64,000 bases of DNA. It comes from Candidatus Helarchaeota archaeon. GTDB taxonomy: Archaea; Asgardarchaeota; Lokiarchaeia; Helarchaeales; RDOG01. The notes beneath the pieces were generated by a model that saw nothing but the letters and a program-made list of their open reading frames with translations, had not been told where the DNA came from and searched no databases. The stretch is taken from assembly GCA_019058315.1 (NCBI GenBank), contig JAHPZH010000001.1:913432-977431 (forward strand), read 5' to 3'. A program made the translations under genes and the position numbers. Below are positions 16,043 to 18,216 of this stretch, one piece after another. Numbering within the stretch: the first letter of the stretch is position 1; every line of letters starts with the position of its first letter.

Positions 16043-16269
16043 ACTTTTTAATCAAACTTACATTTGATTTTTGATAGAAATTGTTATATTTGATTATAAA
16101 CACAAAACTCTAAAATTTTATATTATCAATTATCTAATTTAATTAGAAATATTTTAATAAAAAGAAGTTATTAGAGATTAAAGAATTTATACTACTTTTT
16201 TTTATTAAACAAAGATGTAGTTATAAAAAAATATTATCATTCTAGATTTAAAATTATCGAGGTAGAAGA

Positions 16270-16776
16270 ATGAAATTAGTCGAATTAGCGAAGAAAGCAA
16301 TAAGCCTACTTCAAGAAGCTGGTGATAAAGGTTTCAACAACATTGACCTAGCTCAAAAACTTCATATGCCTAGAAGAAGAGTATATGATATTATTGCTAT
16401 TCTAAGGGCTGCAGGATTAGTTGAAGCCAAAAGAGAAAAGGGTGGCACAAGAATAAAATGGAGCGGTATACCTGTTGTTAGTGAGGTTAAGCCAGACTCA
16501 AGTGTAAGCCCCGATCTAATGGATAAATTAAATAAAGTTACTCAAGAAAAGAACGAATTAGAGTCGCAATTAGATGAATTGAAAGATAAAGTATCGAAAT
16601 TAAAAGAAGAACAAGAAACCTCTACCATGGAAGTTAGTACTAGCAAGACGAAATTCGAGGTTCAAAAAATCAGCATAAAAACATTAAAATCCGCAAAAAT
16701 TACTAAAGTTCAGACATCACCTATTGAAATCGTTCTAGAAGCAGATAAAAAGGGATTTGTTATAGAACCTGGATAG
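16270..16776 (+). CDS. E2F/DP-family winged-helix DNA-binding protein with coiled coil
   Basis: RRRVYDIIAILRAAGLVE...IKWSG matches the E2F/DP signature RRxYD...GLI...I.W.G; heptad coiled coil and beta-rich tail follow; GAGGT SD. Confidence 0.8.
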   Translation: MKLVELAKKAISLLQEAGDKGFNNIDLAQKLHMPRRRVYDIIAILRAAGLVEAKREKGGTRIKWSGIPVVSEVKPDSSVSPDLMDKLNKVTQEKNELESQLDELKDKVSKLKEEQETSTMEVSTSKTKFEVQKISIKTLKSAKITKVQTSPIEIVLEADKKGFVIEPG

Positions 16777-17204: not shown

Positions 17205-17402
17205 TTATCCTTTTAGGAATCGATATTGGACCAAACGATCCATAACTTCAACAATTTTTCGTTCAATTTTATTCTTTTCAATTTCATAGTCATCTTCAGA
17301 AATCTCATTTCTAGATTTTATATTTTCTAATTTTTCCATTTCGTTTATTAATTTCTGTTTCTCCTTCTCCATTCTTTTGATTTCGCCTTCTATTGATACC
17401 AT
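17205..17402 (-). CDS. Small coiled-coil protein with SHOCT-like motif
   Basis: LENIKSRNEISEDDYEIEKNKI resembles L...G.I(S/T)EEEY...K. Confidence 0.6.
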   Translation of the reverse strand: MVSIEGEIKRMEKEKQKLINEMEKLENIKSRNEISEDDYEIEKNKIERKIVEVMDRLVQYRFLKG

Positions 17403-17480
17403 GAGATTTCTTCCAATTTCAATATATTATATGATATCATAACTATCTATTTTAATTTAAAATTATGAATTATCAAAATA

Positions 17481-17500
17481 TTTAAACTTTCGCGCACGAA
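17481..17500 (+). promoter_or_regulatory. TATA-like box (TTTAAA) immediately followed by E2F-consensus site TTTCGCGC
   Basis: tttaaac-tttcgcgc-acgaa in the divergent spacer 17403-17550; ttcgcgcacgaa is also an imperfect palindrome. Confidence 0.45.
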
Positions 17501-17550
17501 TGTAATATAACCAAAAAAAATTTAAAATCTTTGATTTCGGAGTTGAAAAT

Positions 17551-17913
17551 TTGGAAAAAGAGGACGAAAAAGTCCTAATACAGTTTATTTATAAAGACAA
17601 TACCAAGAAATCTCTATTAATTCCACCTGATCATGCAAAAGAACTCGAGATTCTAGCAATTACTGGAGTACCAAGAAGAATCATAAAGGCAATTTTACGA
17701 ATCGGAAAAATATTTTTAGATCGCAAAGGTGAAGTAAATAAAAATGATGTCCTTTCACCCTCGAGGAGTGGAGATCTTTACAATGCCTTAAATTATCTAA
17801 TTAAAGAGAAAATAATCGAAAAAAATAAAGATAGAAAGACTTTAAAAGTTATTGATTTAGATAAACTCAATTCTTTACTATCTGAATTAAAAGATTTAGT
17901 ACGAGAAAAATGA
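17551..17913 (+). CDS. Hypothetical protein with C-terminal winged helix
   Basis: GGAG SD + TTG; SGDLYNALNYLIKEKIIEK...LKV wHTH pattern. Confidence 0.55.
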   Translation: MEKEDEKVLIQFIYKDNTKKSLLIPPDHAKELEILAITGVPRRIIKAILRIGKIFLDRKGEVNKNDVLSPSRSGDLYNALNYLIKEKIIEKNKDRKTLKVIDLDKLNSLLSELKDLVREK

Positions 17914-18075: not shown

Positions 18076-18216
18076 ATGGATGAATATTATCATGACTTAA
18101 AAAAAGCAATAGCTGCATTGGAAAAATACATGGCATCGTTGGAGAAAGATGAATATAATTATTTGTATTCTTCTTTAGAACGTATATCTGATATACAAAA
18201 AAATTTTCGCTTTTAA
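18076..18216 (+). CDS. 46-aa helical microprotein (not in ORF track)
   Basis: GAGG SD, ATG; MDEYYHDLKKAIAALEKYMASLEKDEYNYLYSSLERISDIQKNFRF with amphipathic periodicity. Confidence 0.45.
   Translation: MDEYYHDLKKAIAALEKYMASLEKDEYNYLYSSLERISDIQKNFRF

Follow-up and report, generated by a model that had tools for sequence, protein, structure and literature searches.

The GC-rich element described here, located directly downstream of a TATA-like box in a divergent promoter, is a real and conserved cis-element, as judged from the comparison of orthologous spacers. Very probably it is an operator that is read by a protein, and it is best classed as a core-promoter operator of a small winged-helix regulator. 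More tentatively, with a likelihood that we place slightly below even, this operator lies between the TATA box and the start site of the gene p120 and is bound by the p120 protein acting as a negative autoregulator.

Layout of the promoter and of the locus

The window, i.e. the whole stretch of 64,000 nucleotides that was analysed, corresponds to G000:C3:913432-977431 of the source genome G000, which has 5.79 Mb in 12 contigs and a GC content of ~30%. Here, a divergent intergenic spacer of 148 bp (17403-17550, ~23% GC, range 22-24%) separates cc65 on the minus strand (17205-17402), coding for a 65-aa coiled-coil protein, from p120 on the plus strand (17551-17913), an orphan winged-helix gene of 120 aa. 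cc65 heads a divergent pair with a cyclophilin-like gene (PF04126, 16807-17193, minus strand), and this gene in turn is convergent with an E2F/DP-like winged-helix gene that also encodes a coiled coil (16270-16776, plus strand).

The spacer contains TTTAAA at 17481-17486, followed by a C at 17487 and by the octamer TTTCGCGC on the plus strand (17488-17495), an exact match to TTTSSCGC. A preliminary description of this DNA had reported the octamer in the spacer between 17402(-) and 17551(+), and these coordinates were confirmed, the octamer starting one base after TTTAAA. It had also described the site as a GC island in an AT-rich spacer, as the sole exact copy in the window and as lying ~710 bp from the E2F-like gene. 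All of this is correct, the measured distance from the 3' end of that gene being 712 bp.

Two further elements surround the octamer. A TATA-like box, AAAATATTTA, with a palindromic AAATATTT core (17475-17484) is conserved and may serve both divergent genes. It is located 66-75 nt from the start codons on either side, a distance that falls in the broad excess of TATA-like words seen at -90 to -50 of 818 SD-supported genes. The proposed operator is a 10-bp imperfect dyad, TCGCGCACGA (17490-17499), in which 8 of the 10 positions are symmetric. Closer to p120, a GGAG Shine-Dalgarno element (17539-17542, plus strand) is found 8 nt upstream of the TTG start codon.

A 46-aa ORF on the plus strand (18076-18216), 3' of p120, is ~89% identical in locus L038 and is a called gene in five relatives; by its conservation it looks like a real microprotein.

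Conservation of the dyad and of the TATA-like box

For the comparison of spacers, 11 orthologous loci from two Helarchaeales-level families were used, of which 8 distinct spacers were aligned. Orthologues of the E2F-like and p120 genes were taken from three other genera of the order (G003, G005 and G006) and from four metagenomic or MAG relatives, the p120 proteins of the latter being 64-88% identical. The proteins of the relatives carry Helarchaeota or Hodarchaeota MAG labels.

Only two blocks are invariant in all eight aligned spacers, namely AAAATAT.TA and GCGC.C, and the rest of the spacer has diverged. In the family of the window, AAAATATTTA is followed after 5 nt by TCGCGCACGA, which is identical in five distinct loci. 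In the sister family (G003, G005 and G006), the box reads AAAATATTTATT and is followed, with a gap of 5-6 nt (5-9 bp as measured from the TATA-like box), by TGCGCGCA or TGCGCGCGCA, which are perfect palindromes of 8-10 bp. The T-run is variable, as GGTTCGCGC (L042) or ATATCGCGC (L043) is found in place of the three T's of the window. The E2F consensus, consisting of the T-run and SSCGC, is thus not kept in the orthologous loci, where GCGC.C alone is invariant; of the octamer, only CGCGC is kept. The conservation in orthologues that was to be expected of a functional site consequently holds for the GC core and the TATA-like box, but not for the E2F consensus itself.

The number of TTTCGCGC copies expected by chance within 1 kb of the single E2F-like gene is ~0.0035, a figure that was computed post hoc. 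The invariance of core and box in eight spacers is stronger evidence that the site is not a chance occurrence.

In addition, a block that holds the GGAG, GGAGTTGAA, is conserved in the family of the window. Because this conserved GGAG lies 8 nt before the TTG start codon, the p120 mRNA is probably leadered and starts upstream, which is consistent with use of the box at 17475-17484. The gene order around the dyad is also retained: in each of these relatives, p120 is divergent to cc65 and the cyclophilin-like gene, and the E2F-like gene adjoins them. In the family of the window the E2F-like and cyclophilin-like genes converge, while in the sister family the E2F-like gene is inverted, lying co-directionally downstream of the cc65-cyclophilin pair.

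The p120 protein and its distribution

No Pfam match was found for p120 at E <= 0.1, and its family comprises nine representatives among 1.84 billion proteins. An AF2 model (pLDDT 82) predicts a dimer-type winged helix with a C-terminal helix. Aligned with VIA-align, this model reached Z values of 8-9 to STIV F93, RTP, SmtB, SarR, PadR and Sso10a, and Foldseek returned MarR, SarA and ArsR matches. The best structural matches to p120 residues 38-120 are STIV F93, Sso10a, PadR and RTP, all of them winged-helix dimers with a C-terminal helix (75-81 aligned residues, 7-20% identity), the Z values of 8-9 being within the generic range for winged helices. The p120 model differs from these proteins by an extra N-terminal beta-hairpin. 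A role of p120 as a DP-like partner of the E2F-like protein was considered and dropped, as hhalign against the E2F-like alignment gave a probability of 0.2%.

The dyad is present in every p120-bearing locus of both families, i.e. in G000, G003, G005, G006 and the four metagenomic relatives. In G001, G002 and G004, p120 was absent by both protein and profile search; the cc65-cyclophilin pair is retained in these three genomes, but the CGCGC element and dyad are absent upstream of it. The E2F-like gene is still present in G002 and G004, but G001 lacks it as well as p120. Across genomes, the occurrence of the dyad therefore follows p120 and not the E2F-like gene. In G003, G005 and G006, p120 and the E2F-like gene are inseparable by distribution, because both genes are neighbours at every locus with the dyad. 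A more distantly related homologue of p120 (L137) shows no dyad between the TATA-like box and the start codon; it carries only the heptamer TCGCGCA, at the annotated start codon.

The E2F-like gene and its surroundings

The E2F-like gene matches PF02319 with 39.3 bits against a gathering cut-off of 25.7 and is the sole copy above this cut-off in G000; in the phylum, PF02319 was found in 136 of 400 genomes. The best PDB match of its product is the DNA-binding domain of E2F4 (1cf7_A, E 1e-4), with RRRVYD aligned to KRRIYD, and the stretch PRRR[VI]YDIIAIL is invariant in 10 E2F-like orthologues. By these matches, the gene genuinely belongs to the E2F/DP family of winged helices, and the preliminary description was right to call this neighbour E2F-like.

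Upstream of the E2F-like gene itself, CGCG is absent in six genomes. This region carries another conserved block, GAAATATTTTAATAAAAAGAAG, which is invariant in five loci of the family ~110 nt 5' of the start codon (window ~16146-16167). It has the AAATATTT core in common with the box of the p120 promoter and contains no CGCG.

In a sister family (L010 of G002 and L011 of G004), the E2F-like gene adjoins ftsZ-secE-nusG and has a CxxCxxCC (YkgJ-like) gene as its divergent neighbour, with neither p120 nor a GC element nearby. In 21 of 28 diverse Asgard loci (L062-L090), the E2F-like and cyclophilin-like (PF04126) genes are convergent, tail-to-tail. This pairing points to a functional connection that arose long before the p120 locus. 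In 20 other Asgard lineages, no GC site was found in front of the cyclophilin-like gene.

A different GC word was detected in front of E2F-like genes elsewhere. GGCGCC or GGCGCG occurs upstream of these genes in L076, L077, L086, L090, L063, L073, L079 and L137. In the low-GC Asgard lineages L076, L077, L086, L090 and L137 (1317-1322), GGCGCC is located 100-250 nt 5' of the E2F-like gene, and in L077 it sits inside the near-palindrome ATTGGCGCCAAAT. These upstream GGCGCC sites of other lineages are candidates for classical E2F-type autoregulatory sites.

Genome-wide counts of E2F-type and GC words

For the counts, ORFs of at least 90 aa were taken as coding, which leaves ~15% of G000 as noncoding, and observed numbers were expressed as O/E against a first-order Markov expectation. 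In the window, TTTSSCGC has four copies where 2.65 are expected; as four copies were also reached in 30 of 100 shuffles, the word is not enriched. Genome-wide, TTTSSCGC likewise showed no noncoding enrichment, with O/E values of 0.71 in noncoding and 0.69 in coding DNA; only 8.5% of its 153 copies fall into the ~15% of noncoding DNA.

The octamer TTTCGCGC has one exact copy in the window and 10 in G000 (both strands, 5.79 Mb), five of them noncoding. Of the noncoding copies, two are located in a GC-rich contig end, and a third is found at a further contig end. The GC-rich end (C12:500-540), where the two copies are 18 bp apart, has a composition unlike the rest of the genome and may represent structured RNA, a mobile element or foreign DNA.

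The coding DNA of G000 avoids GCGC words, with O/E values of 0.17 for SGCGCS, 0.37 for CGCGC and 0.17 for TTTCGCGC. In noncoding DNA, words containing GCGC are not avoided, SGCGCS reaching an O/E of 2.3, an excess that is due in part to tRNA ends. Restriction-site avoidance is a possible cause of the depletion. Because GCGC-type words are strongly avoided elsewhere, the copies that are retained look selected.

No replication or division theme, nor any other common theme, was found among the genes flanking AT-rich intergenic GGCGCC and GGCGCG sites in G000; the neighbours include histone, longin-like protein, SUI1, L11, thermosome and SAHH genes. Counts of GCGCGCA in five relatives equalled those of reversed controls. 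The composite TATTTA-N2-10-CGCGCA showed no excess over the reversed control in G000, G001, G003 and G006; in G005 it occurs 11 times against one in the reversed control, mostly inside ORFs.

As TTTSSCGC is unenriched and the GGCGCC/GGCGCG sites are themeless, an E2F-type regulon is not supported. The idea that the site could define a proto-E2F regulon, with intergenic enrichment of TTTSSCGC, thus found no support. Of the enrichment proposed at replication and division genes, a single instance remains, namely one extra copy of the 10-mer that precedes an RPA-like gene.

Second copy and near-copies of the 10-mer

The degenerate dyad TCGYGCRCGA has exactly two copies in G000, against none for the reversed control and a noncoding Markov expectation of 0.02. 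Both copies are located in promoters, each after a TATA-like run. The second exact TCGCGCACGA (C5:184816-184825, i.e. L016 2317-2326) lies in the spacer that separates a TrkA-C/PhoU gene from a divergently transcribed RPA-like gene, the latter encoding an OB-fold protein of the replication factor A type. It is conserved in three relatives (L097, L098 and L099), and the C/A asymmetry of TCGCGCACGA is strictly conserved at both the p120 and the TrkA-C/PhoU | RPA-like promoters. The syntenic TrkA|RPA divergent promoter of G002 is without a dyad. G002 is here the sole fair comparison, since the matches to the RPA-like gene in G005, G006 and G001 are shorter paralogues. The operator was also absent from the TrkA-C/PhoU promoters of G003 and G005.

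Separately, GC-rich sequence resembling structured RNA was observed ~200-400 nt 5' of the TrkA-C/PhoU gene in L117 (G005) and L119 (G003).

Two copies of the 10-mer with one mismatch were detected in AT-rich promoters. One, ACGCGCACGA at C5:251092, lies upstream of a gene for an 88-aa MarR/ArsR-like wHTH protein. The other, at C5:732893, is located 50 nt before an RHH-domain gene and is preceded by AAAAATATTT. In G001, G003, G005 and G006, the candidate orthologous promoters of the 88-aa wHTH gene lacked the CGCGCACGA-like copy, and a metagenome scan found no relatives of this gene closer than 42% identity. In G001, a genome of 40% GC, TCGYGCRCGA has 14 copies; nearly all of them are inside ORFs and look like chance.

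Discussion

Proposed mechanism

In the mechanism that we propose, the GC island would be a sequence-specific operator within a divergent archaeal core promoter, 5 bp after the TATA-like box. Because the usual TATA-to-start distance is ~26 nt, the box at 17475-17484 would place the p120 transcription start near 17508, and the dyad would then span ~-18 to -9. This is a classic archaeal repression position, at which recruitment of the polymerase is blocked. A dimer on the dyad would leave TBP and TFB free to bind but keep RNA polymerase from being recruited or the promoter from opening. The candidate binder is p120, presumably acting as a repressor on its own promoter, and the TrkA-C/PhoU | RPA-like pair would be a second target, because the same 10-mer is found in that promoter. 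The earlier proposal of a real cis-element directly after a conserved TATA-like box, at a position where an archaeal repressor would block polymerase recruitment, is supported.

Several observations speak for an operator: the conserved TATA-like element directly 5', the dyad symmetry, the diverged flanks, the rarity of the 10-mer together with its second conserved copy, and the presence of DNA-binding regulators encoded at the locus. For p120 as the binder speak the agreement between the occurrence of the dyad and that of p120, and the predicted combination of winged helix and C-terminal helix, as in the dimeric DNA binders F93, RTP, PadR and Sso10a. Other points argue against this reading. 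The palindromic AAATATTT box could drive either strand. If it serves the cc65 operon on the minus strand, the dyad would come to lie on the upstream side of the box, which is a typical position for activators. Speculatively, one bound protein might act oppositely on the two divergent units. The C/A asymmetry would be unexpected for a simple homodimer site, and the distant p120 homologue in L137 has no dyad at the corresponding position. Finally, the site holds a GCGC core, which is read by RRxYD winged helices in eukaryotes.

Alternative readers of the dyad

The last points lead to a reading in which the E2F/DP-like protein, as a coiled-coil homodimer, sits on the CGCGC core and controls a very small E2F-type regulon, consisting of p120, possibly the divergent cc65-cyclophilin operon, and the TrkA-C/PhoU | RPA-like pair. 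We consider this rather unlikely. The gene is a true E2F_TDP member with an invariant recognition helix, PRRR[VI]YD, and in the E2F4-DP2-DNA structure 1CF7 it is RRxYD that reads the GCGC core, i.e. the core that the invariant site columns GCGC.C contain. A compact dyad of 8-10 bp would also suit the side-by-side geometry of E2F/DP better than a longer MarR-type operator would. Moreover, the E2F-like gene stays within one or two genes of the spacer in both families despite the inversion, several other Asgard lineages carry GGCGCC or GGCGCG upstream of their E2F-like genes, and the second site fronts an RPA-like replication gene. The asymmetry of the 10-mer and the dyad-less L137 homologue, which count against p120, can be listed on the same side. 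However, the dyad is missing from the cc65-cyclophilin promoters of G002 and G004, whose E2F-like genes encode the same recognition helix, and the TrkA|RPA promoter of G002 is without it as well. The absence of CGCG upstream of the E2F-like gene itself in six genomes, the variable T-run and the lack of intergenic enrichment of TTTSSCGC point in the same direction. The motif that recurs by E2F-like genes elsewhere is GGCGCC and not CGCGCAC, and the AT-rich intergenic GGCGCC sites of G000 are without a functional theme. Of the cognate E2F factor-site pair put forward in the preliminary description, the real element and the true E2F/DP gene thus stand, but the dyad tracks p120 and the T-run is not conserved.

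Less probable still is the binding of another transcription factor, or of p120 together with a partner. Here, the candidate would be the 88-aa MarR/ArsR-like protein with ACGCGCACGA upstream of its gene. The one-mismatch copies in the AT-rich promoters at C5:251092 and C5:732893 would agree with such a factor, and the asymmetry that the 10-mer keeps could indicate something other than a simple symmetric homodimer; yet the one-mismatch copies are absent from the orthologous promoters in G001, G003, G005 and G006, and nothing ties other factors to the p120 locus. We regard it as very unlikely that the element has no specific reader, serving as a GC clamp where the melted region begins on its upstream side or as a Z-DNA-prone run that sets promoter strength, or being there by chance. 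In every locus the GC block alternates between pyrimidine and purine over 8-15 nt, and it would lie at the position of promoter opening, if the start site proposed above is right. The exact 10-mer is nevertheless kept in five diverged loci and in a second conserved promoter. A purely structural role is disfavoured by this, because it would tolerate sequence drift, and chance is ruled out by the conservation.

Comparison with known systems

The eukaryotic E2F/DP site is TTTSSCGC, with a palindromic optimum TTTSGCGCSAAA (structure 1CF7). The window resembles it in the exact match of the octamer, in the invariant GCGC core and in the E2F_TDP gene with RRRVYD at a distance of 712 bp. Unlike in eukaryotes, the T-run and the S flanks are not conserved here and there is no genome-wide enrichment; the centre of the dyad is TCGCG|CACGA as opposed to SGC|GCS in E2F, and the presence of the site is not tied to that of the E2F-like gene in the genomes compared.

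The archaeal winged-helix repressors MDR1, LrpA and Phr bind between the TATA box and the start site of their own promoters. The p120 promoter is similar in that a short dyad is located just downstream of a TATA-like box, in front of a small winged-helix gene, and the predicted effect would again be a block of RNA polymerase recruitment. In contrast to these repressors, p120 comes from an orphan family of nine representatives, and its putative operator is unusually short and GC-only.

Homologues of E2F/DP have been described in Asgard archaea (Spang 2015; Zaremba-Niedzwiedzka 2017, both as cited in PMC7617429). The gene at 16270-16776 is one of them; the only E2F-like motif nearby lies in the promoter of a neighbour and not upstream of the gene itself. 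Our literature search found no DNA target reported for Asgard E2F homologues.

Significance

The E2F/DP homologues of Asgard archaea have been taken to hint that a cell-cycle transcription programme existed before eukaryotes. The present locus offers a defined probe of ~40 bp, two candidate proteins that can be compared on it, and a second conserved site before an RPA-like gene. If p120 binds, we would be dealing with an ordinary archaeal repressor that controls its own gene and very few others, and the locus would warn against inferring E2F biology whenever a CGCG occurs close to an E2F-like gene. If the binder is instead the E2F-like protein, archaea would offer a way to test how recognition of E2F sites originated. 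That the conserved CGCGC dyad is a natural DNA target of the Asgard E2F/DP-like protein, with p120 and the RPA-like gene as targets, is in our estimate improbable, at about one part in four of our expectation. Were it true, the dyad would be the first cis-element assigned to a prokaryotic relative of E2F, and both the link between RRxYD and GCGC and the link between E2F and replication genes would predate eukaryotes.
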